Assembly (NCBI RefSeq): GCF_963921235.1
Contig: NC_086108.1
Span: 16,306,001-16,370,000 of the forward strand
Direction: 5' to 3'
Source of the DNA: Mobula hypostoma
Lineage: Eukaryota
DNA length: 64,000 nt
The position numbers and the translations under genes are program-made. Shown piece by piece: positions 5,364 to 51,935 of this stretch (the first letter of the stretch is position 1; the number at the start of each line of letters is the position of its first letter). The notes beneath the pieces are model-generated. The model had not been told where the DNA came from. It worked only from the letters and a program-made list of their open reading frames with translations, and searched no databases.

Positions 5364-7534
5364 CAGACCAGAATATAGGTGATAAGTCAACTATAAGTCA
5401 CTTATAAATGGCTAATCACTCAATTTCGTTTCTAAAAGGGTTTATCTAACAAATTTAATATTAAACACACAGCAACACACATCAAAGTTGCTGGTGAACG
5501 CAGCAGCCCAGGCAGCATCTCTAGGAAGAGGTACAGTTGACGTTTCGAGAGGTCTCCGCCTGAAACGTCAACTGTACCTCTTCCTAGAGATGCTGCCTGG
5601 CCTGCTGCATTCACCAGCAACTTTGATGTGTGTTGCTTGAATTTCCAACATCTGCAGAATTCCTGTTGTTAAACACACAGCGCTATTTTCCTCACATGAA
5701 TATAGTGATAAGTCAATTATAAGTCACTTATAAGTCAATAGCATCATAACATTTTAAGTAACGTTTGGATATTAAACACACAGTGCATATTTTCCTCATA
5801 CGAACATATAAAATCATTGCAACACACCAATATCGCTGAATCAGTGGGAGCCCTGGGTTTGTTTCCCTGCAACAAGACGGTCCCATCGAGGGGTGATGGG
5901 AGACAGCGATACTCGAAGGGGGTTCCTTGTGTCCAGTCTATTCTGCAATTTAGTTTTTGTTGCATTCATTGCAGAAAACCCCGCTTCGCAGAGATATGAT
6001 GTTGGAAATGGAAGCAACGTTTTCAGTGCTCTGGTGGCTATCTTAGGATATTCAGCCTTGACTTTGATCCAGAATGCCAGCAGAGATGTTATGTCAAACA
6101 TACTTTTCAGACCACCGTCAATTGCAAGCTCGATGAGTTGACCTTCTTCCCACGCTGACATGAATGATTCACCGGGGACATTCACAAATGGGTCACGGAC
6201 CCACTCTTTTGCACGTCTTAGGTCATTTGCGGTTGGGAAGTAACACTCGAATTCTGTCGACAGCGAAGATAGGTGTTCGCGCACCAGCTGTGAGAAGGAT
6301 GGTGCAGCCTCAATCTCTCCTAAAATCCCAGCTAATGTTGGGAACATGTAAAATATGCCCCTGTCCACTCGCCGTCCCCACTGTTCCAGTTTGGCTTTGA
6401 AAGCAGACATTTTATCTGCCAACTTGAAGACAGTTGTCATTCTCCCCTGAAGTGACAAATTGAGCTCATTGAGCAGGTTGAAGGTGTCACACAGATAAGC
6501 AAGTTTTGCTATCCACTCCTTGTCACTGAAGTGTGCTGCCAGTGGTGACTTTTTTCGTGAAAGGAATCTCTGTAGCTGCTCTCTTAACTCAAAAACCCTG
6601 GCCAGGACCCTCCCCCTGAAAGCCACCTGATTTCAGTGTGTAAGAGAAGGTATTTGTGCTCTGCATCCATTTCCTCACAAAGCTGCTCAAATAGAAGTGA
6701 GTTAAAGGCTTTTGCTTTGATGTGATTGATAACTTCAACAACGTCACTCAATACACTGTTAAGATCAGGTGACATTTTTCAGCTATTGATTGTCCTTTAA
6801 ACTGTGGTAGCTGAAAGAGAAACCTGCGCCATCTTGTTAGCTGCAGCTTCTCCCAACAGTTCACCGCACATGTCCTTGGCAGCAGGCAGAATCAATTCTT
6901 CACCAACAGTGAAAGGCTCCTTAGCCTTAGCAATATGGCTAGCCACAAAGTACGACGCTCTTAGAGCAGCAGCATTTGTGGAGGTGGTGGCTCTCAGTAC
7001 TTGCTTCTGCCCCGCTTGCTCACATTTTTTCCGCTCAAAAATCTCAACGGGTTTGTCTTTAAGTGCAGGGTGCTGGACTCAAGGTGCTGAAGCAGTTTTG
7101 AGGGCTCCATTGCCTTATTAGACAGCTTGTCTCCACATATCACACACAGGGGGTTTGGAGCGTGCGAGTCACCGGTCGCAATAAAGCCAGTACTTTATGT
7201 ACCACTCATCCTATTTTCCGTTGAAGGAAGCTTTCTTTTTTTTTTGCAGTCTCGGCCTCCGCTGTCTCTGTGTTATCATCATCGTTAGGCCTTTTATGTC
7301 CCCTACCACTTCTTCCAAAGAAACTCTCCAACGATGTTTGTTTTTCACTCATCGAGTAATTGTAGGTTAATGACCAACTGATGACCTCACGTGCGTTCAA
7401 GTTCAACAGTGAACATGACAAGGAATGAGGAAAGGTGCAGCTGACTCATATCGTTTCATATTGCCAAATCATATTGTTTTCTTGCAGCCTGATAGCACAT
7501 GCTTTAGTCCAACAACTGTGGTTGGGGACCGCTG
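5364..7534 (-). mobile_element. hAT (Buster/Charlie-like) DNA transposon, defective
   Basis: Transposase remnants about 5841-7390 (LLLHTEIRWLS, YLCEAGFS dimerisation motif); right TIR gttggggaccgctg ends at 7534; only CAG remains at the left end; 8-bp TSD tggaatac (5356-5363) / tggtatac (7535-7542) with central TA. Confidence 0.85.
5474..5668. mobile_element. Fold-back (palindromic) PLE terminal-repeat insertion
   Basis: Inverted arms of about 75 bp (5472-5546 / 5562-5636); direct repeat ttaaacacacagc at 5461-5473 and 5669-5681. Confidence 0.85.
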
Positions 7535-7804
7535 TGGTATACAGATGTCTTCCACTGTGAAAACTGATGCAAAATACGCATTCAGTTTCTCTATGTCTCT
7601 CATTACAATACCTCCAGTGTCATTTTCTATTGGTCTTATATCTACCGTCAACTCTCTTTTACCCTTTATATACTTAAAAAATCTTTTAGTATCTTCTTTG
7701 ATATCAGTTCCCAACTTCCTTTCATAATTTAAAAACGCAAACAACAGGAATTCTGCAGATGCTGGAAATTCAAGCAACACACATCAAAGTTGCTGGTGAA
7801 CGCA

Positions 7805-9680
7805 CCTTGTCCCCATTCCAACCTCACTCCTTCGGAACGCTCTGCTCTCCACTCCCTCCGCACTAATCCTAACCTTATTATTAAACCCACTGATAAGGGG
7901 GGTGCTGTTGTAGTCTGGCATACTGACCTCTACCTTGCCGAGGCACAGCGACAACTCGCGGATACCTCCTCTTATTTACCCCTCGATCGTGACCCCACTA
8001 AGGAGCACGAGGCCATTGTCTCCCACACTATCACCGACTTTATCCACTCAGGGGATCTCCCATCCACTGCTACCAACCTTATAGTTCCCACACCCCGCAC
8101 TTCCCGTTTCTACCTCCTACCCAAGATCCACAAACCTGCCTGTCCTGGCCGACCTATTGTCTCAGCTTGCTCCTGCCCCACCGAACTCGTTTCTGCATAC
8201 CTCGACACTGTTTTATCACCCCTTGTTCAATCCCTTCCGACCTATGTTCGTGACACTTCTCACACTCTTAAACTTTTCGATGATTTTAAGTTCCCTGGCC
8301 CCCACCGCTTTATTTTCACCATGGATGTCCAGTCCTTATATACTTCCATCCCCCATCAGGAAGGTCTCAAAGCTCTACGCTTCTTTTTGGATTCCAGACC
8401 TAATCAGTTCCCCTCTACCACCACTCTGCTCCGTCTAGCGGAATTAGTCCTTACTCTTAATAATTTCTCCTTTGGCTCCTCCCATTTCCTCCAAACTAAA
8501 GGTGTAGCTATGGGCACCCGTATGGGTCCTAGCTATGCCTGCCTTTTTGTTGGGTTTGTGGAACAATCTATGTTCCGTGCCTATTCTGGTATCTGTCCCC
8601 CACTTTTCCTTCGCTACATCGACGACTGCATTGGCGCTGCTTCCTGCACGCATGCAGAACTCGTTGACTTTATTAACTTTGCCTCCAACTTTCACCCTGC
8701 CCTCAAGTTTACCTGGTCCATTTCCGACACCTCCCTCCCCTTTCTAGATCTTTCTGTCTCTGTCTCTGGAGACAGCTTATCCACTGATGTCTACTATAAG
8801 CCTACTGACTCTCACAGCTATCTGGACTATTCCTCTTCTCACCCTGTCTCTTGCAAAAACGCCATCCCCTTCTCGCAATTCCTCCATCTCCGCTACATCT
8901 GCTCTCAAGATGAGGCTTTTCATTCTAGGACGAGGGAGATGTCTTCCTTTTTTAAAGAAAGGGGCTTCCCTTCCTCCACTATCAACTCTGCTCTTAAACG
9001 CATCTCCCCCATTTCACGTACATCTGCTCTCACTCCATCCTCCCACCACCCCACAAGGAATAGGGTTCCCCTGGTCCTCACCTACCACCCCACCAGCCTC
9101 CGGGTCCAACATATTATTCTCCATAACTTCCGCCACCTCCAACGGGATCCCACCACTAAGCACATCTTTCCCTCTCCCCCTCTCTCTGCATTCCGCAGGG
9201 ATCGCTCCCTACACAACTCCCTTGTCCATTCGTCCCCCCCATCCCTCCCCACTGATCTCCCTCCTGGCACTTATCCTTGTGAGCGGAACAAGTGCTACAC
9301 ATGCCCTTACACTTCCTCCCTTACCACCATTCAGGGCCCCAAACAGTCCTTCCAGGTGAGGCATCACTTCACCTGTGAGTCGACTGGGGTGATACTACAT
9401 CCGGTGCTCCCGATGTGGCCTTTTATGTATTGGTGAGACCCGACGCAGACTGGGAGACCGCTTTGCTGAACATCTACGCTCTGTCCGCCAGAGAAAGCAG
9501 GATCTCCCAGTGGCCACACATTTTAATTCCACATCCCATTCCCATTCTGACATGTCTATCCACGGCCTCCTCTACTGTAAAGATGAAGCCACACTCAGGT
9601 TGGAGGAACAACACCTTATATTCCGTCTGGGTAGCCTCCAACCTGATGGCATGAACATCGACTTCTCTAACTTCCACTAA
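7805..9680 (+). pseudogene. PLE reverse transcriptase / GIY-YIG endonuclease ORF (5'-truncated, frameshift near 9393)
   Basis: Open for more than 500 codons with QTKGVAMGTRMGPSYA and RYIDD; Cys-rich linker PCERNKCYTC; the GVIY...YIGET motif is frameshifted here but intact in the copy at about 38050-38105. Confidence 0.9.
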
Positions 9681-9972
9681 GGCCCCACCTCCCCCTCGTA
9701 CCCCATCTGTTACTCATTTTTATTCACACATTCTTTCTCTCATTCCTTTTTCTCCCTCTGTCCCTCTGAATATACCTCTTGCCCATCCTCTGGGTCACCC
9801 CCCTCTTGTCTTTCTTCCCGGACCTCCTGTCCCATGATCCTCTCGTATCCCCTTTTACCTATCACCTGTCCAGCTCTCGGCTCCATCCCTCCCCCTCCTG
9901 TCTTCTCCTATCATTTTGCATCTCCCCTTCCCCCTCCAGCTTTCAAATCCCTTACTCACTCTTCCTTCAGTT

Positions 9973-10008
9973 AGTCCTGACGAAGGGTCTCGGCCTGAAA
10001 CGTCGACT
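9973..10008 (+). ncRNA. Minimal type I hammerhead ribozyme motif
   Basis: AGTC-CTGACGA-AGGgtctcggCCT-GAAA-CG-TC^GACT: helix I AGTC/GACT, conserved core, helix II, loop-less palindromic helix III (ACGT); predicted cleavage after C10004. Confidence 0.85.
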
Positions 10009-10259
10009 GCGCCTCTTCCTATAGATGCTGCTTGGCCTGCTGCGTTCACCAGCAACTTTGATGTGTGTTCCTTTCATAATTCATCTTTTCCTTCCTAATG
10101 ACCTTCTTAGTTTCCTTACGCAAGTTTTTAAAAGCTTCTCAATCGTCTATCTTCCCACTAGCTTTGGCTTCCTTGTGTGCCCTCTCTTTTGCTTTTACTT
10201 TGGCTCTGACCTCACTTGTCAGCCATGGTAGTGCTCTTCCATTCAAAAATTTCTTCTTA

Positions 10260-14076: not shown

Positions 14077-14793
14077 AATGCAAAAGAAGTAAATCTTCCT
14101 TATTCTGATGAAAGATCACCATATTGAAATGTTTCATCTGTTGCTTTTTTCATAGATATTTTCAGTGTTGCTGACTATGCAATTTTTGTTTTATTTCCTT
14201 AGTTCTAGTACTGGCAGTGGTTTCTTTTGTATTAAGATGAAACTTTCTCATTGGCCAAATCTCCCTACCTCAGTTCTCAGATTTTGTTGATTTTGTATTG
14301 TTAATCTCTCTGTGTCATCACAGAGAGGTCTAGTATTTCCTGGAATTCATCAATTATTTGGCTAGGCGAACACATGCTCAGTTTGACTGACAAAAGTTGA
14401 TGAACTTACTAGAATTCATTTAAAGATACTCAAGGTAATAAAAAAAGAGGGCAAAACGAAAATTGTACCTATCCAGTTAACTTAAACAAGGGAAAATGAC
14501 ACAGAATGTTCCTCACAATCTTTCCTCCTGAGCCCCACACAATCAGTGGAAAAATGAGATTAAGACATCTGGAGCCTGTATTGTCTGCTCTGCAGTATTA
14601 ACAGATTTTCCAAAATATTTTTGAGCTGCATCCGTTATCCAGTTATCAGGAATATTGGAATTGGAGATGGCAATTCAAATGATTTCTATTTTAACTCCAT
14701 TTTGCTTCCATGTCCATTCATACTATTGCATAAAAAAAATTAATATTTCAGTTGTAAACAGACTCTCATCACTCCATTCCCATTACTCTAGAG

Positions 14794-16619: not shown

Positions 16620-17185
16620 CAAAGCAGATGCTAGAAATGCAAGCAACACACACAAAATGCTGGATGAACTCAGCAGGCCAGGCAGCATCTATGGAAAAGA
16701 ATACAGTCGATGTTTTGGGCCAACACCCTTCGGCAGGATTGGAGAAAAAAACCTTAGGATTAGATTTAAGAGGTGGGGGGAGGGGGAGAGAAACACAAGA
16801 TGATAGGTGAAACCTGAAAGGTGGCGGGGGGGGTGGGGTGAGGTAAGGATCTGGGAAGTTGATTGGTGAGAGGAATACAGGGCTGGAGAAAGGGAAGTCT
16901 GATAAAAGAGGACAGAAAGCCATGGAAGAAAGAAAAGCGGGGAAGAGCACCAGAGGGAGTAGATGAGCAGGCAAGGAGATAACATGAGAGAGGGAAAAGA
17001 GGATGGGGAATAGTAAAGGTGGACGGAGCCATGACCGGAAGTTCGAGAAATCGATGTTCATGCCATCAGTTTAGAGGCTACCCAGATGGAATACAAGGTG
17101 CTGTTTTTCCAACCTAAGTGTGGCCTCATTACAATAGTGGAGAATGCCATACAGAGACATATCAGAATGGGAAGGGGAAGTGCAA
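16620..17185 (-). mobile_element. Older PLE 3' fragment with a degenerate hammerhead
   Basis: Encodes the PLE C-terminus (...DGMNIDFSNFR); related terminal repeat; ribozyme core mutated (CTGCCGA...AAAACATC at about 16705-16740). Confidence 0.8.
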
Positions 17186-19332: not shown

Positions 19333-19782
19333 TAGGCATCCATTAGTCTCATGAGACCATAGATTTGCGCCTTGGAAAGTTTCCAGGGCGCAGGCCTGGG
19401 CAAGGTTGTATGGAAGACCAGCAGTTGCCCATGCTGCAAGTCTCCCCTCTCCATGCCACCAATGTTGTCCAAGGGAAGGGCATTAGGACCCATACAGCTT
19501 GGCACTGGTGTCATTGCACAGCAATGTGTAGTTAAGTGCCTTGCTCAAGGACACACACGCTACCTCAGCCAAGGCTCGAACTAGTGACCTTCAAATCACT
19601 AGATGAACACCTTAACCACTTCAAACAACAGGAATTCTGCAGATGCTGGAAATTCAAGCAACACACATGAAAGTTGCTGGTGAACGCAGCAGGCCAGGCA
19701 GCATCTCTAGGAAGAGGTGCAGTCGACGTTTCAGGCCGAGACCCTTCGTCAGGACCTTAACCACTTGGCCACGCGCCAACAC
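19333..19782 (-). mobile_element. tRNA-headed SINE with bipartite RTE-derived body, interrupted by a PLE mini-insertion
   Basis: A box TGGCCAAGTGG (19771-19761) and B box GTTCGAGCC (about 19581-19573); body matches the RTE 5' UTR (22985-23116) and RTE 3' end (26523-26571). Confidence 0.85.
19622..19753 (-). mobile_element. PLE terminal-repeat mini-insertion (132 bp) with hammerhead core
   Basis: 13-bp TSD accttaaccactt (19609-19621 / 19754-19766); starts C-CTGACGA on the minus strand; hammerhead spans 19721-19756. Confidence 0.9.
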
Positions 19783-20007
19783 ACAGAGTAGGCCAGTATG
19801 TATTGACATCCCAAATTGCCTGTCATGGTGAGCTTTAATCCTTCTGAAGTTACTCTCGGCACACTGGCCTGGGAGTTCCAGCATCTAGACCCAGTGCCAA
19901 TGAAGGACCAACAATGTATTTCAAATCAGGACTATGCAGGACGGGCTACTTGCTGTACCTACTGCTCATCACGTTCTTGATTGCCAGGTGTTATCAGAGT
20001 GGAAGAG

Positions 20008-22791: not shown

Positions 22792-25700
22792 TTGGGTAGA
22801 TGGAGTTCATCAGCTTGGTAAGGCAGTCCATCTAAGAGAGGGAAACTCTGATTTCAAACCTTCTCTGCCTTGCGGCCATACCCACTCATGGGAAAGGCTT
22901 CGGGAGTAAACCCTGAGGACAAATCCGGAGCTGGAGTCCCTAAGGCAGTCCGACGTTGCCTCAACCTCGTTCTAGCAACTCCTGTGACAACACTGGTGCC
23001 AAGTTGTATCGGCCCTTGCCTTTCCCTTGGACAACATCAGTGTCATAGACAGGGGAGACTTGCAACATGGGCAACTGCCGGTCTTCCATACAACCTTGCC
23101 CAGGCCTGCACCCTGGAGAGGACACTCCAGCATTGCCTCACCGCGACAGCACAACACAGAAAGCAGCAGTCTACTGGTTATAAGTCTGCACTCAATTGGC
23201 ATAGAGCAAGGCACCAGGGGTTGCTTTCGACGGAGGGAGAGACCATCGCATCTCACTGGACAGCTACCGCCCACCTCAAGTTGGGCAGCCCCCAGCCAAT
23301 TAGGTGCTGTCCCGCCACAGTCCGCCCGCTCCACTGGGTGCGTAGGGCTTAGGGATACAAGTAGCCCGAACTGCGGACTGTAAACGCTGCACCAGGCACA
23401 TCAAGAAGACAAAGAAAGAAGCCAGCACTCAGACTAGGATGCCAGAATATACAGACCATGACAACTGGTATATCAGATGACCTTCAGGAGATCAGCGACA
23501 CACGCAAGACAGCAGTGATTAACAATGAACTGTCGAGACTCCAAGTGGACATCGCAACGCTCCAAGAGACACGTCTCACAGAATCGGGAACCCTATGTGA
23601 AAAAGACTATACCTTCTTCTGGCAGGGGAAGGGCTCAGACGAAACCAGAGAGCATGGTGTCGGCTTTGCCGTGAAGAACTCGTTGCTGAAGATGGTAGAG
23701 CCTAGCAAGAAAGGGACGGAGTGGATTTTCTCACTTCGACTCCACACATCTGACGGGCCTGTCAACCTTGTCAGCGTCTATGCCCCAACCCCCTACTCTA
23801 CACAAGACGCAAAGAGTGAGTTCTACGACCAGCTCTCAATGATGATACAGGAGATCCCAAGTCAGGAACAGTTGCTGCTACTTGGTGACCTCAACGCCAG
23901 AGTGAGCGCCGAGCACGACTCCTGGCCAAGCTGCCTGGGGCAGTATGGGATTGGCAGCATGAATGACAACGGGCAACGACTGCTCGAGCTTTGCATGCTC
24001 CACGAATTGTGTGTCACCAACACCTACTTCCAGACCAAAGCTCAGCACAAAGTGTTTTGGCAGCATCCCCGCTCCAAACACTGGCACCAGCTAGACCTGA
24101 TAATCACAAGACGCCATCACCTGAGAAACGTGTTCATGACTCGCTCCTTTCAGAGCGCCGACTGCGACACGGATCACTCTCTGGTTTGCTGCAAGATCAG
24201 ACTTCGGCCGAAGAAGATGCACTACGCCAAGCAGCGCATCGATGCCAGTAAGACACAACACCCAGATAAAGCTGCGGAGTTCAAGTCACTGGAGGATGCT
24301 CTCCTTGCAGACCCACCAGAGGTAAATGCTGAGCAGAGATGGGACTCTCTCAGGGACACTATCCACAGCACTGCACTCAAGGCCTCTGGGAAGAAACGGG
24401 GCAAAACACAGGACTGGTTTGAAGTGAGCTCAAGTAAGCTCACCGCTGTTTATCAAGGTAAAGCGTGTTGCACTACTACAGCACAAACACCACCCCACCC
24501 AGGCAACACTACAAGTGCTAAGCAAGGCCCAGGAAACAACCAGACGCTGTGCAAATCACTACTGGCTACAACTATACAAAAGCATTCAGTCATCATTTGA
24601 CACAGACAACATCCATGGAGTGTACGAGGGGATCAAGAAAGCCATCGGGCCAACCCAGAGCAAGACAGCACCATTGAAAACTATAACAGGTGAGACTATC
24701 AATGACAAAGGCAAGCAGATGGAGAGGTGGGTGGTGCATTACTCTGAACTCTTCTCCAGAGAAAACAGCATCTCGGACAGCGCGCTAGATACCGTGGAAT
24801 GCCTGCCTGTCATGGAGGAACTTGATGCATTGCCAACTGCCGAAGAGTTGAGTAAAGCCATCGACAGCCTGCCCTCTGGGAAGGCACCAGGATTGGATGG
24901 CATTCCACCAGAGGCCATCTAATGCGCAAAAGGTGTCCTGCTAAACCACCTGCACGAACTACTGTGCCAGTGCTGGTTAGCAGGAGCAGTGTCGCAAGAC
25001 ATGAGAGACTGCAACATTGTCACCTTACATAAGAACAAAGGGGACAGAAGCGACTGTAACAACTTCAAGGGAATCTCCTTGCTGAACATCGTTGGAAAGG
25101 TCTTTGCCCGCGTGGTCCTGAACAGACTGCAGAAAATAGCCGAAAGGGTATATCCTGAGTCTCAGTGCGGTTTCAGGTCAGAACACTCCACAATCAACAT
25201 GATCTTCTCCCTTCAACAGCTACAAGAGAAATGCAGAAAGCAAAGACAACCATTCTACATCGCTTTCATTGACCTTATGAAGGCCTTCGATCTTGTGAGC
25301 AGAGACAGCCAGTTCAAAATCCTCGCCAGGATTGGTTGTCCCCCGAGGCTCCTCAAGATAGTTCAGTCATTCCACACAGACATGAAGGGTGTCATTCAGT
25401 TCGACGACTCCTCTTCAGAGGTCTTCAACATCCACAGCAGTGTGAAGCAGGGCTGTGTGCTTGCCCCCACCCTGTTCGGTATCTTCTTCGCAGTCATGCT
25501 CAACATCAACTGATGGTGTCTACCTCCACACCAGATCGGACGGGAGGCTGTTCAGTCTGTCCCAGCTGAGGGCGAAAACCAAGGTTCGTGAAGTACTCAT
25601 CAGGGACATGTTGTTTGCAGACGACGTGGCACTGGCAACATACTCTGAAGAGCAACTGCAACGCCTCATGGGCAGCTTCTTAAGAGCCTGCCAGGACTTC

Positions 25701-26578
25701 AGCTTGACCATCAACCTGAAGAAGACCAATGTGTTGGGCCAAGGCGTTGAGCACCCCCTGCCATTACCATCAACAACTACGAGCTGGAGGTAGTTCACGA
25801 GTTTACATACCTTGGCTCCACCATCACGGACAGCCTCTCCCTAGACCCTGAGATAAACAGACCGATCGGACAAGCAGCCTCAACATTCGCCAGCCTGACA
25901 AAGGGAGTCTGGGAGAACAGAAAGGTGACGATGCACACCCAAGTTGCTGTCTGCAGGGCCTGCGTCCTCAGCACACTGCTTTACGGCAGCGAGACCTGGA
26001 GCCTCTACTACAGACAAGTGCGGCGACTTAATGCCTTGCACCTTCACAGCCTGAGACGCATCCTGGACATCAAGTGGACAGACCAAGTCACCAACAATGA
26101 GGTCCTGGCCCGCGCCCAGATACCCAGCCTCTTCATCCTGCTCCAACAACACCGTCTCCGCTGGGTGGGCCACGTACAGGGCATGTCAGATGGGAGGATC
26201 CCGAAAGACCTGCTGTACAGGGAACTGGCCTCCGTCAAGAGAGCACAAGGGCGGCTCCATCTTTGTTTCAAAGATGTCTGCAAGAGAGACATGAAGTCAT
26301 TGAACATGAACGTCGAGAGGTGGGAGGACATCGCAAGCGATTGCTCTCACTGAAGGCTGGAACTACGTAGCGGTCTAAAAAGTGGAGAAGAGAAGCTGAG
26401 ACTTGCTGCTGAAGAAAAGCACACTCATCGGAAAAACAGTACCAAGACAACACTGGAGGACAGCGCCTTCAAGTGCAGTCGCTGCAGCCACAACAGACAC
26501 TACTTTACCAACACGACTGAAGCAAGACTTTCCAGGCACAGATCCATGGTCTCGCGAAACTAACGGATGCCACCACCA
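22792..26578 (+). mobile_element. Full-length RTE-clade LINE (defective)
   Basis: 14-bp TSD agattataaatatt (22778-22791 / 26579-26592); single APE-RT frame about 23458-26353 broken by frameshifts and stops (LQETRL, LLGDLNA, QGCVLAPTLF, LFADD); short (CCA)n tail. Confidence 0.93.
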
Positions 26579-28269: not shown

Positions 28270-31200
28270 CAAATCTTTTTTAAAGAGTTTAAAAGGAGAG
28301 GGTTATTTCTTCAGCGGTTTGATCAGGGCACGACTGTGCAAGTGCGTGGACATCAACCGGGTAGAAAAGCGAAAAGAGTTTAAAAGGGGACAGCTTAATA
28401 GAGCGGGCGAGAGAGGAGAGGGAGATAGAGTAGGAGGGCTTTGGCTGAATGGGGTTTCAGCAATAACGGATCGAGGCGAGGTAGGTTATCTGTGTAGAAT
28501 ACAGACAGGAAGTATGTGTGTGAGGCCGGCGTTCTGTGCTTGGTGGCAGATGTGGGAAGTCCTGGAGATTCCCAGCCTCCCGGACTGCCACATCTGTGCC
28601 TGGTACGTCGAGCTGCAGTTCCTTAGGGACTGCGTTAGGGAACTGGAGATGCAGCTCGATGACCATCGTCTGGTCAGGGAGAGTGAGGAGGTGATAGAGA
28701 GGAGCTACAGGCAGGTAGCCACACTGGGGCCTCGGGAGACAGATAAGTGGGTAACCGTCAGGAGAGGGAAGGGCAGGAGTCAGAGGCCAGAGAGTACCCC
28801 AATGGCTGTCCCCCTTAACAATAAGTACTCCTGTTTGAGTACTGTTGGGGGGAACGGCCTACCTGGGGGAAGCAACAGTGGCTGTGCCTCTGGCACAGAG
28901 TCTGGCTCTGTGGCTCAGAAGGGTAGGGAAAGGAAGAGGTTGGCAGCAGTGATAGGGGACTCTTATAGTTAAGGGGTCAGGCAGGCGATTCTGTGGACAC
29001 AGGAAAGAAACATGGAGTTTGCCTTCCAGGTGCCAGGGTCTGGGATGTTACTGATCGTGTCCATGACATCTTGAAGTGGGAAGGAGAACAGCCAGAGGTT
29101 GTGGTACATATTGGTACCAACAATGTAGGTAAGAAAAAGAAGGAAATCCTGAAAACAGACTACAGGGAGTTAGGAAGGAAGTTGAGTAGCAGGACCTCAA
29201 AGGTAGTAATCTCAGGATTACTGCCTGTGCTACATGACAGTGAGTATAGGAATAGAATGAGGTGGAGGATAAATGCATGGCTGAGAGATTGGAGGGATTC
29301 AGATTTCTGGATCATTGGGACCTCTTTTGGGGCAGGCGTGGCCTGTACATAAAGGATGCGTTGCACTTGTATCCCAGGGGGACCAATATCCTGGCAGGGA
29401 GGTTTGCAAAGGGGAGAGTTTAAAATAGAATTGCCAGGGGGTGGGAACCCAATTGAAAAGATGGAGGAAGAGGCGGTTGGCTCACAAATAGAGAAAGCTT
29501 GGAGACAGTGCAAGAGAGAGGATAGCCAGGTGATCGAGAAGGGTTGCGCTCAGACCGATGGTTTGAGACGTGTCTATTTTAATGCAAGGAGTATAATGAA
29601 CAAAGCAGATGAGCTTAGAGCGTGGATCAGTACTTGGAGCTATGATGTTGTGGCCATTACAGAGACCTGGATGGCTCTGGGGCAGGAATGGTTACTTAGA
29701 GTGCCAGGCTTTACATGTTGCAGAAAGGACAGGAAGGGAGGCAAAAAGGCACTGTGGATTAGAGATGGTGTCATGGCTGCAGAAAAGGAGGAAGTCATGG
29801 AGGGATTGCCTATGGAGTCTCTGTGGGTGGAAGTTAGGAATAGGAAGGGATCAATAATTCTACTGGGTGTTTTTTTTTAATAGACCACCCAATAGTAACA
29901 GGAACATCTAGGAACAGATAGGGAGACAGATTCTGGAAAGCTGTAATAATAACAGGGTTGTTGTAGTGGGAGATTTTAATTTCTGTAATATCGATTGGCA
30001 TCTCCCTAGAGCAAGGGGTATAGATGGGGTAGAGTTGGTTAGATGTGTTCAGGAAGGTTTCTTGACACAGTATGTAGATAAGCTTACAAGAGGAGAGGCT
30101 ATACTTGATCTGGTTTTGGGAAATGAACCTGGTCAGGTGACTGATCTCTCAGTGCGATAGCATTTTGGAGAGAGTGATCACAATTCTATCTCCTTTACCA
30201 TAGCATTGGAGAGAGATATGAATAGACAAGTTAGGGAAGTGTTTAATTGGAGTAACGGGAAATATGAGGCTATCAGGCAAGAACTTGGAAGCATAAATTG
30301 GAAATAGATGTTCTCAGGGAAATGTATGGAAGAAATGTGGCAAACATTCGGGGATATTTGCATGGAGTTCTGCATAGCTACGTTCCAGTGAAACAGGGAA
30401 AGGATGGTAAGGTACAGGAACCGTGGTGTACAAAGGCTGCTGAAAATCTAGCCAAGAAGAAAAGAAGAGCTTACGAAAGGTTCAAAAAACTAGGTAATGA
30501 TAGAGATCTAGAAGATTATAAGGCTAGCAGGAAGGAGCTTAAGAATGAAATTAGGAGAGCCAGAAGGGGCCATGAGAAGGCCCTGGTGGACAGGATTAAG
30601 GAAAACCCCAAGGCATTCTACAAGTGTGTGAAGAGCAAGAGGATAAGTCGTGAGAGAACAGGACCAATCAAGTATGTATGGAACCGGAAGAGATAGCAGA
30701 GGTACATACTGAACACTTTGCTTCAGTATTCACCATAGAAGAGGATCTTGGTGATTGTAGCGATGACTTACAGCGGACAGAGAAGCTTCAGCATATAGAT
30801 ATTAAGCAGGAGGATGTGCTGGAGCTTTTGGAAAGCATTAAGTTGGATAAGTCATCAGGACTGGATGAGATGCACCCCAGGCTACTGTGGGAGGCAGGGG
30901 AGGAGATTGCTGAGCCTCTGGCGATGATTTTTACATCATCAATGGTCCCCATCCGGGAGAGGAGATTCCGGAGGATTGAAGGGTTGCGGATGTTGTTCCT
31001 TGATTCAAGAAAGGGAATATAGATAGCCCAGGAAATTATAGACCACCCAGTCTTACTTGAGCGGTTGGTAAGTTGACGGAGAAGATCCTGAGAGGCAGGA
31101 TTTATGAACATTTGGAGAGGCATAATATGAATAGTCAGCATGGCTTTGTTAAGGGCGGGTCGTACCTTACAGGTCAGATTGAATTTTTTGAGGATGTGAC

Positions 31201-35080: not shown

Positions 35081-35800
35081 TAAAAGCCAAAGAGAGGGTA
35101 TATAATAAATAGTGGGAAGTTGGAGGATTGGGAAGCTTTTAAAAACCAACAGAAGACAACTAAAAATGTCAAAAAAGGAAAATATGGTATACGAATGTAA
35201 GCCAACTAATAACATAAAAGTGGATATTAAAAGTTTCCTTGGACTTTTAAAATGTAAAGTAGAGGTGAGAGTAAATCTCAAGACTGCTGGAAAATGATGC
35301 TGGAGAGGTAATAATGAGAGGAGGGGGCAGAACAAATAAACAGCCAACAAACTGAATAATTATTTTGCATCAGTCTTCACTGTGGAAGACACTAACAATA
35401 TGCCGGAAGTGTCAGGGGACAGAAGTGAGTGAAGTTGTCATTACTAGGGAGAAGGTGCTTGGGAAAATGAAATAGATAGGTAAGTTATTTGGACCAGATG
35501 GTCTACACCCCAGGGTTCTCAAAGAGGTGGCTGAAGAGATTGTGGAGGTATTAATAATGACCTTTCAAGAATCAATGGATTCTGATAGGGTTCCAGAGGA
35601 CTGGAAAAAATTGCAAATGTCACTCCACTCTTCAAGAAGGGAGAAAGCAGAAGAAAGAAAATGAGAAGCCAGTTAGGAAGATGTTGGAGTTGATTGTTAA
35701 GAAAACAACAGGAATTCTGCAGATGCTGGAAATTCAAGCAACACACATCAAAGTTGCTGGTGAATGCAGCAGGCCAGGCAGCATCTGTAGGAAGAGGTGC

Positions 35801-35836
35801 AGTCGACGTTTCAGGCCGAGACCCTTCGTCAGGACT
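35801..35836 (-). ncRNA. Minimal hammerhead ribozyme motif
   Basis: Reverse complement of AGTCCTGACGAAGGGTCTCGGCCTGAAACGTCGACT, intact. Confidence 0.85.
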
Positions 35837-38640
35837 AACTGAAGGAAGAGTGAGTAAGGGATTTGAAAGTTGGAGGGGGAGGGGGAGATCCAAAATGATA
35901 GGAGAAGACAGGAGGGGGAGGGATGGAGCCAAGAGCTGGACAGGTGATAGGCAAAAGGGGATACGAGAGGATCATGGGACAGGAGGTCCGGGAAGAAAGA
36001 CAAGTGGGGGGGGCGGAGCCAGAGGATGGGCAAGAGGTATATTCAGAGGGACAGAGGGAGAAAAAGGAGAGTGAGAGAAAGAATGTGTGCATAAAAATAA
36101 GTAACAGATGGGGTACGAGGGGGAGGTGGGGCCTTAGCAGAAGTTAGAGAAGTCGATGTTCATGCCATCAGGTTGGAGGCTACCCAGACGGAATATAAGA
36201 TGTTGTTTCTCCAACCTGAGTGTGGCTTCATCTTTACAGTAGAGGAGGCCATGGATAGACATGTCAGAATGGGAATGGGATGTGGAATTAAAATGTGTGG
36301 CCACTGGGAGATCCTGCTTTCTCTGGCGGACAGAGCGTAGATGTTCAGCAAAGCGGTCTCCCAGTCTGCGTTGGGTCTCGCCAATATATAAAAGGCCATA
36401 TCGGGAGCACCGGACGCAGTATATCACCCCAGTCAACTCACAGGTGAAGTGTTGCCTCACCTGGAAGGACTGTTTGGGGCCCTGAATGGTGGTAAGGGAG
36501 GAAGTGTAAGGGCATGTGTAGCACTTGTTCCACTTACATGGATAAGTGCCAGGAGGGAGATCAGTGGGGAGGGATGAGGGGGACGAATGGACAAGGGAGT
36601 TGCGTAGGGAGCGATCCCTGCGGAATGCGGGGGGGGGGAGGGAAAGATGTGCTTAGTGGTGGGATCCCGTTGGAGGTGGCGGAAGTTACGGGGAATAATA
36701 TGTTGGACCCGGAGGCTGGTGGGGTGGTAGGTGAGGACCAGGGGAACCCTATTCCTAGTGGGGTGGCGGGAGGATGGAGTGAGAGCAGATGTACGTGAAA
36801 TGGGGGAGATGTGTTTAAGAGCAGAGTTGATAGTGGAGGAAGGGAAGCCCCTTTCTTTAAAAAAGGAAGACATCTCCCTCGTCCTAGAATGAAAAGCCTC
36901 ATCCTGAGAGCAGATGCGGCGGACTAAATCACCATGGATGTCCAGTCCTTATAAGTTCCCTGGCCCCCACCGCTTTATTTTCACCATGGATGTCCAGTCC
37001 TTATATACTTCCATCCCCCATCAGGAAGGTCTCAAAGCTCTACGCTTCTTTTTGGATTACAGACCTAATCAGTTCCCCTCTACCACCACTCTGCTCCATC
37101 TAGCGGAATTAGTCCTTACTCTTAATAATTTCTCCTTTGGCTCCTCCCACTTCCTCCAAACTAAAGGTGTAGCTATGGGCACCCGTATGGGTCCTAGCTA
37201 TGCCTGCCTTTTTGTTGGGTTTGTGGCACAATCTAGGTTCCATGCCTATTGTCCCCTACTTTTCCTTCGCTACATCGACGATTGCATTGGCGCTGCTTCC
37301 TGCACGCACGCAGAGCTCGTTGACTTTATTAACTTTGCCTCCAACTTTCACCCTGCCCTCAAGTTTACCTGGTCCATTTCCGACACCTCCCTCCCCTTTC
37401 TAGATCTTTCTGTCTCTGTCTCTGTCTCTGGAGACAGCTTATCCACTGATGTCTACTATAAGCCTACTGACTCTCACAGCTGTCTGGACTATTCCTCTTC
37501 TCACCCTGTCTCTTGCAAAAACGCCATCCCCTTCTCGCAATTCCTCCGTCTCCGCCGCATCTGCTCTCAGGATGAGGCTTTTCATTTTAAGACGAGGGAG
37601 ATGTCTTCCTTTTTTAAAGAAAGGGGCTTCCCTTCCTCCACTATCAACTCTGCTCTTAAACGCATCTCCCCCATTTTACGTACATCTGCTCTCACTCCAT
37701 GCTCCCGCCACCCCACTAGGAATAAGGTTCCCCTGGTCCTCACCTACCACCCCACCAGCCTCCGGGTCCAACATATTATTCTCCGTAACTTCCGCCACCT
37801 CCAACGGGATCCCAGCACTAAGCACATCTTTCCCTCCCCCTCTCTCTCTGCATTCCGCAGGGATCGCTCCCTACGCAACTCCCTTGTCCATTCGTCCTCC
37901 CCATCCCTCCCCCACTGATCTCCCTCCTGGCACTTATCCGTGTAAGCGGAACAAGTGCTACACATGCCCTTACACTTCCTCCCTGACCACCATTCAGGGC
38001 CCCAAACAATCCTTCCAGGTGAGGCAACACTTCACCTGTGAGTCGACTGGGGTGATATACTGCGTCCGGTGCTCCCAATGTGGCCTTTTATATATTGGCG
38101 AGACCTGACACAGACTGGGAGACCGCTTTGTTGAACATCTACGCTCTGTCCGCCAGAGACAGCAGGATCTCCCAGTAGCCACACATTTTAATTCCACATC
38201 CCATTCCCATTCTGACATGTCTATCCACGGCCTCCTCTACTGTAAAGATGAAGCCACACTCAGGTTGGAGGAACAACACCTTATATTCCGTCTGGGTAGC
38301 CTCCAACCTGATGGCATGAACATCGACTTCTCTAACTTCTGCTAAGGCCCCACCTCCCCCTCATACCCCATCTGTTACTTATTTTTATGCACACATTCTT
38401 TCTCTCACTCTCCTTTTTCTCCCTCTGTCCCTCTGAATATACCTCTTGCCCATCCTCTGGGTCCCCCCCACCCTTGTCTTTCTTCCCGGACCTCCTGTCC
38501 CATGATCCTCTCGTATCCCCTTTTGCCTATCACCTGTCCAGCTCTTGGCTCCATCCCTCCCCCTCCTGTCTTCTCCTATCATTTTGGATCTCCCCCTCCC
38601 CCTCCAACTTTCAAATCCCTTACTCACTCTTCCTTCAGTT

Positions 38641-38676
38641 AGTCCTGACGAAGGGTCTCGGCCTGAAACGTCGACT
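38641..38676 (+). ncRNA. Minimal hammerhead ribozyme motif
   Basis: AGTCCTGACGAAGGGTCTCGGCCTGAAACGTC^GACT; predicted cleavage after C38672. Confidence 0.85.
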
Positions 38677-40525
38677 GCACCTCTTCCTACAGATGCTGCC
38701 TGGCCTGCTGCGTTCACCAGCAACTTTGATGTGTGTTGCTTGATTGTTAAGAATGTGGTTTTGGGCGACTTGGAGGCATATGATTAACAAGTTAAGACTC
38801 CATGGTATTACAGGAAAGATGCTAGCATACGTAGAATATTGTCTGACTGGCAGGAGGCAATACATGGAAATAAAGGGTGCTAGTGACTAGTGGTGTTCCA
38901 CAGGGGTCTGTGTTGGGACCGCTTCTTTTTATGTTATACATCAATGATTTGGGTGATGGAATGATGACCCTGTGGCCAATTTTGCAGACGATATGAAGAC
39001 AGGTGGAAAGGCAGGTAGTGTTGAGGAAGCAGACAGGCTACAGAAGGACTTACAAATAGATTAGGAGAATGGGCAAAGAAGTGGCAAATGGAATAGAGTT
39101 TCAAGAAATGTATGGTCATGTACTTTGGTAGAAGAAATAAAAGCATAGACTATTCTCAAAATAGAGCGAAAATTCATTAAATCTGAGGGGCAAAGGGACT
39201 TGAGAATCCTCATGCAGAATTCCTTAAAGGTTAATTTACAGGTTGAGTCAGTGGTAAGAAAGGCAAATGCAATGTTAGTATTCTTTTCAGAGGACTAGAA
39301 TATAAAAGTAAGCCTGTAATGTTGAGGCTTTATGAAACAACGGTGAGGCTTGAATATTGTGGGCAGTTTTTGGGCTCTTTATTTACGAAAGGATGTGCTG
39401 ACATTGGACGGGGTTCAAAGGAAGCTCATGAAAATGATTCTAGGATTGGAAGTCCTCATATTGGAAGGATATGAGGAGCCTTTAATGGCTCAAGGGCTGT
39501 ATTCCCTGAAGTTCAGAAGAATAAGAGGGGATCTCATTGAAACCTATCAAATGTTGAAAGGCCTCAATAGAGTGGATGTGGAGATGATGTTTCTTATGGT
39601 GGCGGAGTCTGAGCAGAGGATAACAGTCTCAGAATAGCGGGATATCCATTTAGAACTGTGATGAGAAATTTCTTTAGCCAGGTGGTGGTGAATCAGTGGA
39701 ATTCTTTGTCACAGGTCGCTGTAAAGATCAAGTCACTGAGTATATTTAAGAGAGAGGTTGATAAAGATTCTTGATTAAACAGGGTATGAAGGGATATGGG
39801 GAGAAGGCAGGTGATTGGGGCCCAGAATGACATGGATCAGCCATGATAAAATGGTGGAGCAGACTCAATGGGCCAAATGGTCTAATTCTGCTCCTATATC
39901 TTATGGTCTTAACCGTAACCGCCAACAAAATTTTAATACCGAGCCACAATTTCAGGTGATGAAAAATGTGGTCAAACTAATAAGCTTTGAAGAAAACCCA
40001 TGGATGGAAAAGATATCAAGTTAATTGGGGTTTATAGAAAGGGAGCTTATATAGGTAGGGAGTGATTGAGGCTATTAACTAAGTTTTGTTTGCCAATACC
40101 CATAATGCCCATTGGTTTGATGGAATAACTTGACTTGTGGGATAATAACTTTTTCTTTTTAATTCTGGGCCTTTCCCTTCCATTTGTTTACAACCCAGTC
40201 ACTTCTACAAACTTCCCACACCTCTAATTCTGGCTACTAGATCATATTCCCATTATTCTACCATTGGTCATCTTGCCTTGTTGCCAAGACCATAATCTCT
40301 GGAGTTCGAGCCATTAAACTTCAATAACTCTTTTTAAGATCCATCATTAAAACACCATCTTGATCATGGTTTTGATCGCTGCTAGTATCTCCTCTTTTGG
40401 TTTGCCACCTACTGTCATGATTCTACTTCTGTGAAAGGTTTCAGGCTTTATACAAATCCAACACCCAAGGACAGAATAATGCTGAAGTATTTACATGTCT
40501 GGACGCATGCAAAATGATCAAATAC

Positions 40526-41165: not shown

Positions 41166-41276
41166 TTGAATTCAATTCAATATTGATGCAATTACAAAGG
41201 TGGCAACAGAGTGGCTATATTTCTTTAGGAGTTTGAGGAGAATTGGTATATCACCAAAGACACTCACAAGTTTCAA

Positions 41277-43140
41277 AAAAAACTGACTGTAAAAGCTTTT
41301 ATAGATATGTAAAAAGGAAAAGACTGGTAAAGACTGGACCCCTACAGACAGAAACAGGTGAATTGATTATGGGGAGCAAGGCCATGGCAGACCAATTGAA
41401 TAATTACTTTGGTTCTGTCTTCACTAAGGAGGACATAAATAATCTTCCAGAAATAGTAGGGGACAGAGGGTCCAGTGAGATGGAGGAACTGAGCGAAATA
41501 CATGTTAGTAGGGAAGTGGTGTTAGGTAAATTGAAGGGATTGAAGGCAGATAAATCCCCAGGGCCAGATGGTCTCCATCCTAGAGTGCTTAAGGAAGTAG
41601 CCCAAGAAATAGTGGATGCATTAGTGATAATTTTTCAAAACTCGTTAGATTCTGGACTAGTTCCTGAGGATTGGAGGGTGGCTAATGTAACCCCACTTTT
41701 TAAAAAAGGAGGGAGAGAGAAACCGGGGAATTATAGACCGGTTAGCCTAACGTCGGTGGTGGGGAAACTGCTGAAGTCAGTTATCAAAGATGTGATAACA
41801 GCACATTTGGAAAGTGGTGAAATGATCGGACAAAGTCAGCATGGATTTGTGAAAGGAAAATCATGTCTGACGAATCTCATAGAATTTTTTGAGGATGTAA
41901 CCAGTAGAGTGGATAGGGGAGAACCAGTGGATGTGGCATATTTGGATTTTCAAAAGGCTTTTGACAAGGTCCCACACAGGAGATTAGTGTGCAAACTTAA
42001 AGCACATGGTATTGGGGGTAAGGTATTGATGTGGATGGAGAATTGGTTAGCAGACAGGAAGCAAAGAGTGGGAATAAACGGGACCTTTTCAGAATGGCAG
42101 GCGGTGACTAGTGGGGTACGGCAAGGCTCAGTGCTGGGACCCCAGTTGTTTACAATATATATTAATGACTTGGATGAGGGAATTAAATGCAGCATCTCCA
42201 AGTTTGCGGATGACACGAAGCTGGGTGGCAGTGTTAGCTGTGAGGAGGATGCTAAGAGGATGCAGAGTGACTTGGATAGGTTGGGTGAGTGGGCAAATTC
42301 ATGGCAGATGCAATTTAATGTGGATAAATGTGAAGTTATCCACTTTGGTGGCAAAAATAGGAAAACAGATTATTATCTGAATGGTGGCCGATTAGGAAAA
42401 GGGGAGGTGCAACGAGACCTGGGTGTCATTATACACCAGTCATTGAAAGTGGGCATGCAGGTACAGCAGGCGGTAAAAAAAGGCGAATGGTATGCTGGCA
42501 TTTATAGCGACAGGATTCGAGTACAGGAGCAGGGAGGTACTACTGCAGTTGTACAAGGCCTTGGTGAGACCACACCTGGAGTATTGTGTGCAGTTTTGGT
42601 CCCCTAATCTGAGGAAAGACATCCTTGCCATAGAGGGAGTACAAAGAAGGTTCACCAGATTGATTCCTGGGATGGCAGGACTTTCATATGAAGAAAGACT
42701 GGATGAACTGGGCTTGTACTCGTTGGAATTTAGAAGATTGAGGGGGGATCTGATTGAAACGTATAGAATCCTAAAGGGATTGGACAGGCTAGATGCAGGA
42801 AGATTGTTCCCGATGTTGGGGAAGTCCAGAACGAGGGGTCACAGTTTGAGGATAAAGGGGAAGCCTTTTAGGACCGAGATTAGGAAAAACTTCTTCACAC
42901 AGAGAGTGGTGAATCTGTGGAATTCTCTGCCACAGGAAACAGTTGAAGCCTGTTCATTGGCTATATTTAAGAGGGAGTTAGATATGGCCCTTGTGGCTAC
43001 GGGGATCAGGGGGTATGGAGGGAAGGCTGGGGCGGGGTTCTGAGTTGGATGATCAGCCATGATCATAATAAATGGCAGTGCAGGCTCGAAGGGCCGAATG
43101 GCCTACTCCTGCACCTATTTTCTATGTTTCTATGTTTCTA
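41277..43140 (+). mobile_element. Young 5'-truncated CR1-type LINE
   Basis: RT frame open except for one frameshift in the A-run at about 42476-42481; tail (TTCTATGT)n. Confidence 0.93.
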
Positions 43141-44427: not shown

Positions 44428-44554
44428 CTGATGAAGGGTCTCGGCCTGAAATGTCAACTGTGCTTCTTCCTATAGAGGCTGCCTGGCCTGCTGTGTTCCA
44501 CCAGCATTTTGTGTGTGTTGCTTGAATTTCCAGCATCTGCAGATTTCCTCGTGT
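44428..44554 (+). mobile_element. PLE terminal-repeat mini-insertion starting at the hammerhead core
   Basis: Begins CTGATGAAGGGTCTCGGCCTGAAATGTC, followed by a variant terminal repeat; no long TSD; 5' arm of helix I absent. Confidence 0.8.
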
Positions 44555-46885: not shown

Positions 46886-48690
46886 CATAGAAACTACAGC
46901 TCAGAAACAGGCCTTTTGGCCCTTCTTGGCTGTGCCGAACCATTTTCTGCCTAGTCCCACTAACCTGCACACGGACCATATCCCTCCATACACCTCCCAT
47001 CCATGTATCTGTCCAATTTATTCTTAAATGTTAAAAAAGAACCCGCATTTACCACCTCATCTGGCAGCTCATTCCATACTCCCACCACTGAAACTGAACA
47101 CAATACTCCAGATTCTGCCTCACCAATGCCTTATACAACCTCATCATAACATTCCAGCTCTTATACTCAATACTTTGATTAATAAAGGCCAATGTACCAA
47201 AAGCTCTCTTTACGACCCTATCTACCTGTGATGACACTTTTAGGGAATTTTGTATCTGTATTCCCAGATCCCTCTGTTCCACTGCACTCCTCAGTGCCTT
47301 ACCATTATCCCTGTATGTTCTACCTTGGTTTCTCCTTCCAACATGCAATACCTCACACTTGTCTGTATTAAACTCCATCTGCCATTTTTCAGCCCATTTT
47401 TCCAGCTGGTCCAAGTCCCTCTGCAGGCTCTGAAAACCTTGCTCACTGTCTACTACACCTCCAATCTTTGTATCATCAGCAAATTTGCTGATCCAATTTA
47501 CCACGTTATCATCCAGATCATAGAAACCTAGAAACATAGAAAATAGGTGCAGGAGTAGGCCATTCGGCCCTTCGAGCCTGCACCGCCATTTGTTATGATC
47601 ATGGCTGATCATCCAACTCAGAACCCCGCCCCAGCCTTCCCTCCATACCCCCTGATCCCCATAGCCATGAGGGCCATATCTAACTCCCTCTTAAATATAG
47701 CCAATGAACTGGCCTCAACTGTTTCCTGTGGCAGAGAATTCCACAGATTCACCACTCTCTGTGTGAAGAAGTTTTTCCTAATCTCGGTCCTAAAAGGCTT
47801 CCCCCTTTATCCTCAAACTGTGACCCCTTGTTCTGGACTTCCCCAACATCGGGAACAATCTTCCTGCATCTAGCCTGTCCAATCCCTTTAGGATTTTATA
47901 CGTTTCAATCAGATCCCCCCTCAATCTTCTAAATTCCAACGAGTACAAGCCCAGTTCATCCAGTCTTTCTTCATATGAAAGTCCTGCCATCACTACCACT
48001 CTTTGGCTTCTTCCATTGAGCCAATGTCTAATCCAATTTACCACCTCTCCATGTATACCTAGTGACTGAATTTTCCTAACTAACCTGCCATGCGGGACCT
48101 TGTCAAAGGCCTTACTGAAATCCATGTAGACAATATCCACTGCCTTCCCTTCATCCACTTTCCTGGTAACCTCCTCGAAAAACTCCAATAGATTGGTCAA
48201 ACATGACCTACCATGCACAAAGCCATATTGACTCTCCCTAATAAGTCCCTGTCTATACAAATGCTTGTAGATTCTGTCTCTTAGTACTCCCTCCAATAAT
48301 TTACCTACTACCGACGTTAAACTCACCGGCCTATAATTTCCCGGATTACTTTTCGATCCGTTTTTAAACAACGGAACGACATGAGCCACTCTCCAATCCT
48401 CCGGCACCTCACCCGTAGACAGCGACATTTTAAATATTTCTGCCAGGGCCCCCGCAATTTCAACACTAGTCTCCTTCAAGGTCCGAGGGAACACTCTGTC
48501 AGGTCCCGGGGATTTATCCACTTTAATTTTCCTCAAGACAGCAAGCACCTCCTCTTTTTCAATCTGTACAGTTTCCATGATCTCACTACTTGATTCCCTC
48601 AATTGCATAGACTTCGTGCCAGTTTCCTTAGTAATACAGACGCAAAAAACCTATTTAAGATCTCCCTCATTTCCTTTGGTTTCCTTTGGT
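46886..48690 (-). mobile_element. CR1-type LINE with an internal deletion and a nested young CR1 3' end (47520-47992)
   Basis: 46886-47519 matches the family at 50944-51935; 47520-47992 matches 42669-43140; the RT continues at 47993-48690. Confidence 0.85.
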
Positions 48691-50926: not shown

Positions 50927-51935
50927 CCTCTAACCATTGACACCAGTGCTGGGTCCATTGTTATTTGTCATCTATATCAATGATCTGGATGATAATGTGG
51001 TAAATTGCATCAGCAAATTTGCTGATGATACAAAGATTGGAGGTGTAGTAGACAGTGAGCAAGGTTTTCAGAGCCTGCAGAGGGACTTGGACCAGCTGGA
51101 AAAATGGGCTGAAAAATGGCAGATGGAGTTTAATACAGACAAGTGTGAGGTATTGCACGTTGGAAGGACAAACCAAGGTAGAACATACAGGGTTAATGGT
51201 AAGGCACTGAGGAGTGCAGTGGAACAGAGGGATCTGGGAATACAGATACAAAATTCCCTAAAAGTGGCGTCACAGGTAGATAGGGTCGTAAAGAGAGCTT
51301 TTGGTATATTGGCCTTTATCAATCAAAGTATTGAGTATATCAGCTGGAATGTTATGATGAGGTTGTATAAGGCATTGGTGAGGCAGAATCTGGAGTATTG
51401 TGTTCAGTTTTGGTCACCAAATTACAGGAAGGATATAAATAAGGTTGAAAGAGTGCAGAAAAGGTTTACAAGGATGTTGCCAGGACTTGAGAAACTCAGT
51501 TACAGAGAAAGGTTGAATAGGTTAGGACTTTATTCCCTGGAGCGTAGAAGAATGAGGGGAGATTTGATAGAGGTATATAAAATTATGATGGGTATAGATA
51601 GAGTGAATGCAAGCAGGCTTTTTCCACTGAGGCAAGGGGAGAAAAAAAACCCAGAGGACATGGGTTTAGGGCGAGGGGGGAAAAGTTTAAAGGGAACATT
51701 AGGGGGGGCTTCTTCACACAAAGAGTGGTGGGAGTATGGAATGAGCTGCCAGATGAGGTGGTAAATGCGGGTTCTTTTTTAACATTTAAGAATAAATTGG
51801 ACAGATACATGGATGGGAGGTGTATAGAGGGATATGGTCCGTGTGCAGGTCAGTGGGACTAGGCAGAAAATGGTTTGGCGCAGCCAAGAAGGGCCAAAAG
51901 GCCTGTTTCTGTGCTGTAGTTTCTATGGTTTCTAT
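50927..51935 (+). mobile_element. 5'-truncated CR1-type LINE in the L1 inter-ORF region
   Basis: RT C-terminus FADDTKIGG; tail ttctatggtttctatgg; short ggtaa repeat on both flanks. Confidence 0.9.

Follow-up and report, generated by a model that had tools for sequence, protein, structure and literature searches.

A 36-base motif on the plus strand at 9973–10008 of the 64-kb stretch of DNA analysed here (the window) reads AGTC CTGACGA A GGGT CTCG GCCT GAA ACGT C GACT and has the architecture of a minimal type I hammerhead ribozyme. Helix I (AGUC/GACU) is formed by 9973–9976 and 10005–10008. The CUGACGA...GAAA-CG-UC core, with CUGACGA at 9977–9983 and GAAA at 9997–10000, flanks helix II (9985–9996), whose best fold pairs GGGU with GCCU around the loop CUCG and leaves one unpaired A after the core (9984). 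The place of helix III is taken by the palindrome ACGU (10000–10003) without a loop, and cleavage is predicted after C10004. We numbered the A of the helix I AGUC as +1, which puts the predicted cleavage after +32. An initial annotation had described this CUGANGA core with helix I, helix II and a helix III reduced to ACGU, and all of these elements were confirmed. It had also referred the motif to a known class, as is indeed published: minimal hammerheads (min-HHRs) were reported in 2014 from the pseudo-LTRs of metazoan Penelope-like elements (PLEs), including Xena, Poseidon and Neptune of fishes (PMC4209133). As in that report, the motif combines a type I core (CUGANGA ... GAAA ... UH), a helix I of 4–5 bp, one unpaired base between A9 and position 10.1 of helix II, and a helix III consisting only of the palindromic positions 15.2–16.2, without loop III. 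It differs from the class described there in its host, which is likely a ray, in a helix II of just 4 bp and in its commonest form, which has G10.1–U11.1 and not the conserved G–C.

The bare core pattern CTGANGA-N5-35-GAAA is not above chance in the window, with 13 matches versus 8.6 ± 3.2 expected and 13 reached by 10 of 100 shuffles. Two core-only matches, 14105–14129(+) and 60807–60831(−), look by eye somewhat like older repeats of this kind; they were rejected as distant copies, the family profile giving no match there at E ≤ 10, and the remaining bare-core matches lack the stems and were rejected as hammerheads. A full descriptor (core, helix II of at least 3 bp, palindromic 15.2–16.2 and UH) found six matches, all with ACGU, versus a mean of 0.06 and a maximum of 1 in 200 shuffles. 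When a minimum of 4 bp in helix I was also required, five matches stood against none in 200 shuffles. These matches are not independent, because all belong to one repeat family. Among nine aligned copies, helix II was paired in 36 of 36 cells and helix I in 84%. The pair 10.1–11.1 was G–U in six copies, G–C in two and A–U in one, changing on one side at a time; two-sided (compensatory) changes in the helices numbered zero among these nine closely related copies, whose covariation score was reached by 338 of 500 shuffles. The search with hammerhead covariance models, put forward as a check in the initial annotation, gave no support: Rfam returned no hammerhead family at E ≤ 1, and a canonical hammerhead with a stable helix III was not found. 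This outcome is expected, because the motif has no helix III. The sole Rfam match, mir-789 (31.8 bits versus a gathering score of 100), corresponds to a fold-back palindrome at 5471–5670 and was dismissed as spurious. Exact-pattern scans gave no match in metagenome contigs, viral contigs or prokaryotic genome contigs.

The motif sits about 290 nt 3′ of a 5′-truncated Penelope-like ORF (7805–9680, plus strand) with a DKG motif, a reverse transcriptase (RT), a CX4CXXC linker and a GIY-YIG region, interrupted by a frameshift near 9390. Upstream of the motif, a 567-codon frame (7733–9436) carries the DKG motif, the RT (Pfam E 1.1e-5, under the curated cut-off) and the C-X4-C-X2-C linker CERNKCYTC, and leaves frame within the endonuclease. 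The GIY-YIG domain itself was matched by Pfam (E 2.9e-5) on another frame, 36134–36652, which lies on the inverted arm of a second insertion, has the linker CKWNKCYTC and is 47% identical to the linker and endonuclease end of a full-length relative of 889 amino acids. The closest named proteins are from Mobula hypostoma (89–94%) and Hypanus sabinus (77–89%), which makes a ray the likely source of the window. An RT with DKG followed by a C-terminal GIY-YIG, as found here, marks endonuclease-bearing PLEs, and a CX2-5CXXC linker between the two domains marks the Neptune clade. According to PMC8557442 this linker is absent from Penelope and Poseidon, while Hydra has CxCX5C; the linker therefore excludes Penelope/Poseidon and the Hydra type, and Neptune or Nematis fits the features given there. 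A 2026 preprint covering vertebrates describes Neptune and Poseidon only (bioRxiv 10.64898/2026.07.22.740005). By its protein motifs, not by an RT tree, the element would thus be classed as Neptune-type, in agreement with the original assignment of the motif to the terminal region of such a PLE. DKG, a C-terminal GIY-YIG with internal cysteines and the linker are shared with the Neptune clade of PMC8557442, as is an inverted 5′-truncated partner with a tail on one side. Unlike the microsatellite targets described there, the ray insertions lie in ordinary sequence with clear duplications of 12–14 bp.

We collected copies by BLAST with the 3′ 1.2 kb and with a profile of motif plus tail, and both approaches agreed on 11 arms in eight insertions. 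All copies are 5′-truncated, none being full length within the window. The insertion that holds the motif (7738–10073) consists of an inverted arm with a full tail (7739–7804, minus strand) and a direct arm ending at +101, and is bordered by a 14-bp target-site duplication (TSD). A second head-to-head insertion, also with a 14-bp TSD, spans 35703–38743; its minus-strand arm (35703–36923) carries a motif at 35801–35836, the GIY-YIG frame and a full tail (+134), and its plus-strand arm (36949–38743) carries a motif at 38641–38676 and ends at +103. The third two-armed insertion is the fold-back at 5471–5670, flanked by a 13-bp TSD. Its arms, which have their 5′ ends at about +12/+14 and +25 and their 3′ ends at +133 and +100, join within helix II. 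Two short minus-strand insertions have clean duplications: 19622–19755 (about 132 bp, starting at +2/+3 in helix I and including the full tail, 13-bp TSD) and 61796–61886 (about 91 bp, from +3/+4 to about +95, 12-bp TSD). A more diverged short copy at 44428–44549(+) starts at +5, and a TSD was looked for there and not found. The remaining two, both on the minus strand, are 62320–62610, which runs from −195 to +95 with a motif at 62378–62413 (CUGAUGA, G10.1–C11.1), and 16624–17185, an older, diverged copy whose alignment reaches 68% over 610 bp and whose motif, at 16705–16740, has decayed.

An ungapped scan with the 36 bases found identical copies at 35801–35836(−) and 38641–38676(+), one mismatch each at 19721(−) and 61853(−), three at 62378(−), six at 44424(+), seven at 16705(−) and nine at 5538–5573(+). 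The copies listed as intact in the initial annotation (9973, 35801, 38641 and 62378) thus lie where it had put them, the last with its three mismatches. Its core-only copies at 19721(−), 61853(−) and 44428(+) exist as well, but the first two are not without helix I: 61853 keeps 2 bp of it and 19721 all 4 bp, because a target-site G supplies a G–U pair. The copy at 44428 reads AUGU in place of the palindrome. A degenerate copy expected near 16705(−) was recovered, whereas the fold-back insertion and the motif-less inverted tail at 7739–7804 were additional to the annotated sites.

The ends of the copies follow a pattern. TSDs of 12–14 bp were seen at five of eight insertions. The 3′ ends fell into two groups about 33 nt apart, +95 to +103 (5 of 11 arms) and +133/134 (4 of 11), while the two older diverged copies align to +118 and +127. 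All three two-armed insertions are head-to-head with a full tail on one arm only, that is, an inverted 5′-truncated partner with a one-sided tail of 30–40 bp. The 5′ ends lie at +2/+3, +3/+4, +5, about +12, +25, +69, −195, −450, −1086, about −1690 and −2168. Ten of the 11 arms span the predicted cleavage site; none starts at +33 and none ends at +32. For Poseidon of Anolis carolinensis (PAc), the head-to-head, one-sided-tail pattern, which is familiar from Penelope elements, has been traced to two internal RT starts combined with nicking of both strands (PMC11167929). The ray copies resemble PAc, as described in that work, in having two 3′ ends 30–40 nt apart past the hammerhead, in the use of both strands and in copies that span the cleavage site. 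They differ in belonging to another clade, PAc having no CX2-5CXXC linker, and PAc is known biochemically while the ray element is known from sequence.

Most probably, then, the hammerhead motif, minimal and of type I, lies close to the 3′ terminus of broken, 5′-truncated Neptune-type PLE copies that were reverse-transcribed from uncut RNA. By analogy with PMC11167929, the two groups of 3′ ends and the one-sided tails would reflect nicking of both DNA strands by the element protein and a start of reverse transcription at two positions inside the RNA, both 3′ of the hammerhead. The template would be uncleaved RNA, as for Poseidon in vitro, consistent with a cleavage site spanned by nearly every arm; site-spanning copies would also come from cleaved and re-ligated (circular) RNA. 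In an active master the hammerhead may be a weak ribozyme, either assisted by protein or dependent on a dimer, and would at most process tandem transcripts at another stage, while in the window copies it would be a passenger decaying at CpG sites.

Variation across the family was analysed in public contigs from the runs X1, X5, X9 and X17, where depth is summed over contigs and was taken neither as copy number nor as expression. At least 113,548 contigs matched in X1 and at least 105,599 in X5; with over 100,000 contigs per DNA run, the family is therefore very abundant. Eight of the 40 variants listed fall in the motif, seven of them CpG-type and one U11.1/C11.1. C11.1 makes up 19–31% of the summed depth in these contigs and retains the pair. 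Among the variants listed for X1, frequencies were 6.7–8.5% at four core-side places, 8.4–11% at two loop places and 3.0% at G12, and the common non-CpG variants listed flank the motif on both sides. This distribution fits a core kept in masters and neutral decay in copies. Young copies keep all core positions, and the CpG-type variants are about equally frequent in core and loop. When one young copy was compared with one old copy, 29 of 36 motif positions were kept, as were 29 of 37 and 31 of 38 over the next 72 nt, versus 19 of 37 in the 36 nt upstream. This one young–old comparison suggests that conservation extends over the entire module from +1 to +134 and is not visibly a property of the ribozyme alone.

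Such even conservation would also be expected if the motif were retained for a non-catalytic role, as an RNA element bound by the RT, an internal promoter or a splice acceptor, with cleavage lost in this lineage. Folding is in line with that alternative. With nearest-neighbour energies, which leave out tertiary contacts, the monomer forms both helices, I and II, together with an inactive pairing of GACG with CGUC, at −10 kcal/mol (z −0.37). The young subfamily has C7 and U11.1 (window positions 9981 and 9996), the 62378 copy U7 and C11.1, and the inactive fold is stronger in the former, which is the commonest form (−10.0 versus −8.6 kcal/mol); both C7 and U11.1 are expected to stabilise the inactive fold or to destabilise helix II. 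Sequence resembling a splice acceptor at the 5′ edge of the motif points the same way. Against a non-catalytic role stand the young copies with every core position in place, and the only common non-CpG variant listed for the motif preserves a pair. Moreover, the Poseidon motif is reported to cleave, only with the help of the element protein, with rescue by C3G/G8C, and to be dispensable for insertion (PMC11167929). We therefore regard loss of catalysis as doubtful, and keep to a weak or assisted ribozyme in the masters.

The 5′ edge of the motif carries further information. A stretch resembling a 3′ splice site (9951–9974, plus strand; use putative) comprises branch-point-like CTTAC/CTCAC at −22/−18, a pyrimidine tract, CAG at −5 to −3 and TAG at −1 to +2. 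AG occurs at −4 and +1, and in two of three young copies no further AG is found back to −101. The overlapping TCAGTT is presumably initiator-like, a label given from its consensus. The Drosophila virilis element likewise has a pyrimidine tract and an AG where helix I begins; its intron, located 46 bp downstream of the start site (PMC2377424), terminates at that point (PMC4209133). An RNA 5′ end or a splice acceptor at helix I is likely, judging from these signals. The 5′ ends of three arms, out of 11, lie at +2 to +5, and two of these arms have clean TSDs. Since they begin at the front edge of the motif and not at the cleavage site, these short copies probably derive from uncut RNA.

We tentatively propose that insertions of 90–135 bp headed by the hammerhead are run-off products of the RT at the 5′ end of uncut RNA. 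Reverse transcription would start from within the RNA, at the 5′ terminal repeat's tail, and run off an RNA 5′ end fixed at helix I by the initiator or the 3′ splice site. The products would resemble retroviral strong-stop DNA, and a template jump from the run-off end would be required to make a full-length copy. Through helix II the new DNA would be able to turn back and prime its own extension, giving the insertion at 5471–5670, where the turn-back within helix II may equally reflect the joining of two arms; PMC3846280 discusses palindromic junctions. At +2, an inversion joint was seen in at least four X1, at least three X5 and two X9 contigs, and not in X17.

The same starts could instead be random 5′ truncations made conspicuous by a motif-biased search, or the result of RT drop-off at the upstream pyrimidine-rich stretch. 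Clustering in the window is indeed weak and post hoc: three of seven ends lie within 4 nt when uniformity over −200 to +100 is assumed (p = 0.013), and three of six over +1 to +100 (p = 0.063). Among those listed in the public contigs, loose ends at +1 numbered at least 281 in X1 and at least 217 in X5, versus at least 462 and 405 at the true 3′ end; this +1 peak may come largely from a subfamily with different upstream sequence, as the loose-end consensus at +1 is not random in either run. X9 had no loose ends at +1 or +2 among the six positions listed. Several observations speak against chance. Arms were gathered with the tail and the upstream region, not with the motif alone. X17 has 21 loose ends at +2 versus 49 at the 3′ end, among those listed. 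In X1, the loose ends recorded at +1 have a median of 112 nt and an agreement of 0.38; in being long and heterogeneous they resemble those at the true 3′ end (255 nt, 0.42) and not those at a subfamily boundary at 35800 (270 contigs, 24 nt, 0.6). In addition, both ray database proteins that contain the translated motif begin their match at −9 to −3 (2 of 2, ending near +103). Random truncation or drop-off appears rather unlikely, and we tentatively prefer RT run-off. If true, this reading would make a Penelope replication intermediate visible in genomic sequence, show that internal initiation is not confined to Poseidon but occurs in Neptune too, and account for the abundance of solitary minimal hammerheads in animal genomes.

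The weakest alternative extends the dimer cleavage mentioned in the initial annotation: tandem transcripts would pair ACGU with ACGU into a double hammerhead, both sites would be cut, and the unit would be ligated into a circle from which the genomic copies descend; we consider it improbable. It was proposed in PMC4209133, where min-HHRs are described as inactive as monomers, and dimer and trimer constructs as weakly active. All six descriptor matches keep the palindrome, and ligation would restore the junction and so be compatible with intact sites. Contig joints at 35836->35726, 35837->35766 and 35832->35746 lead from the 5′ edge of the motif (about +1) back into the tail, which hints at retrozyme-like head-to-tail units of 70–110 nt elsewhere in such genomes. 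In the window, however, no insertion has more than one motif on a given strand (35801 and 38641 lie head-to-head on opposite strands), so that a cis dimer within one insertion is impossible. For two copies, the double hammerhead (−11.5 kcal/mol) is strongly disfavoured relative to the extended duplex (−30.3), the misfolded monomer scoring −11.0, again without tertiary contacts. Together, the missing same-strand pair and these energies leave dimer cleavage unsupported for the window copies. The ends at +2 to +5 are not explained by circles either. For Poseidon, hammerhead mutants insert normally and RNA-seq ends are absent at the site (PMC11167929), and eight of nine Xenopus dimers tested showed no cleavage (bioRxiv 10.64898/2026.07.22.740005). 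Copying from uncut RNA thus remains the preferred reading.

Non-LTR retrozymes, non-coding hammerhead derivatives of Penelope terminal repeats, have been reported in one cartilaginous fish (PMC7229834; bioRxiv 10.64898/2026.07.22.740005). The short ray copies are likewise hammerhead-bearing, non-coding and derived from such repeats. They differ in being dispersed monomers or inverted pairs with duplications: no tandem array of successive hammerhead-bearing units was found, all eight window insertions being solitary or inverted. Mostly solitary copies on truncated elements and opposite-strand pairs are also what PMC4209133 describes for min-HHRs. A search of mostly open-access literature, without Repbase or supplements, found no account of the ray family or of 5′-end clustering at helix I, and the latter goes unmentioned in the accessible part of PMC11167929. 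The arrangement of motif and PLE is already known, and the ray family adds one host lineage to the 2014 class. Its value lies in the copy ends, where two 3′ starts, a cleavage site without ends, 5′ ends that may pile up at helix I and a fold-back in helix II offer clues to replication; a family of such high copy number is a good place to study the Penelope cycle by genome counting.

Repeats of this kind are easily misread as microRNA hairpins, and they appear in ray database proteins under host-gene names. Three such proteins (P0004, P0033 and P0123) include the element ORF or the translated hammerhead region and are named as a chitinase-domain protein, a kinase-domain protein and STARD3 N-terminal-like. 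A search of representative proteins again returned the two ray proteins that contain the translated motif, and one low-complexity match upstream of the motif, and for a second reading frame through the motif no protein match was found.

Several features of the surrounding sequence were also recorded. The motifs at 61853–61888(−) and 62378–62413(−) lie 525 nt apart on the same strand and stem from two independent insertions; the upstream AGUC could pair with the downstream GACU, a dimer-like layout by chance if that strand were transcribed. The 132-bp copy lies inside a sequence (19560–19790, minus strand) that is A-box-like and that we take to be a possible tRNA-derived SINE head; ARAGORN called no tRNA gene. 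Matches to apurinic-type endonuclease and RT families at 23365–26353, 29353–29880, 41237–42607 and 56406–57914 indicate that the window is dense in LINE-like fragments. Inverted repeats of about 220 bp (57645–57865 and 59026–59248), separated by 1.2 kb that contains broken frames, are possibly a decayed DNA transposon. Finally, 47091–47524 and 50977–51410 are 97% complementary arms of another young inverted retroelement pair, and the RT-matching regions around them (47049–48650 on the minus strand, 50934–53765 on the plus strand) are oppositely oriented.
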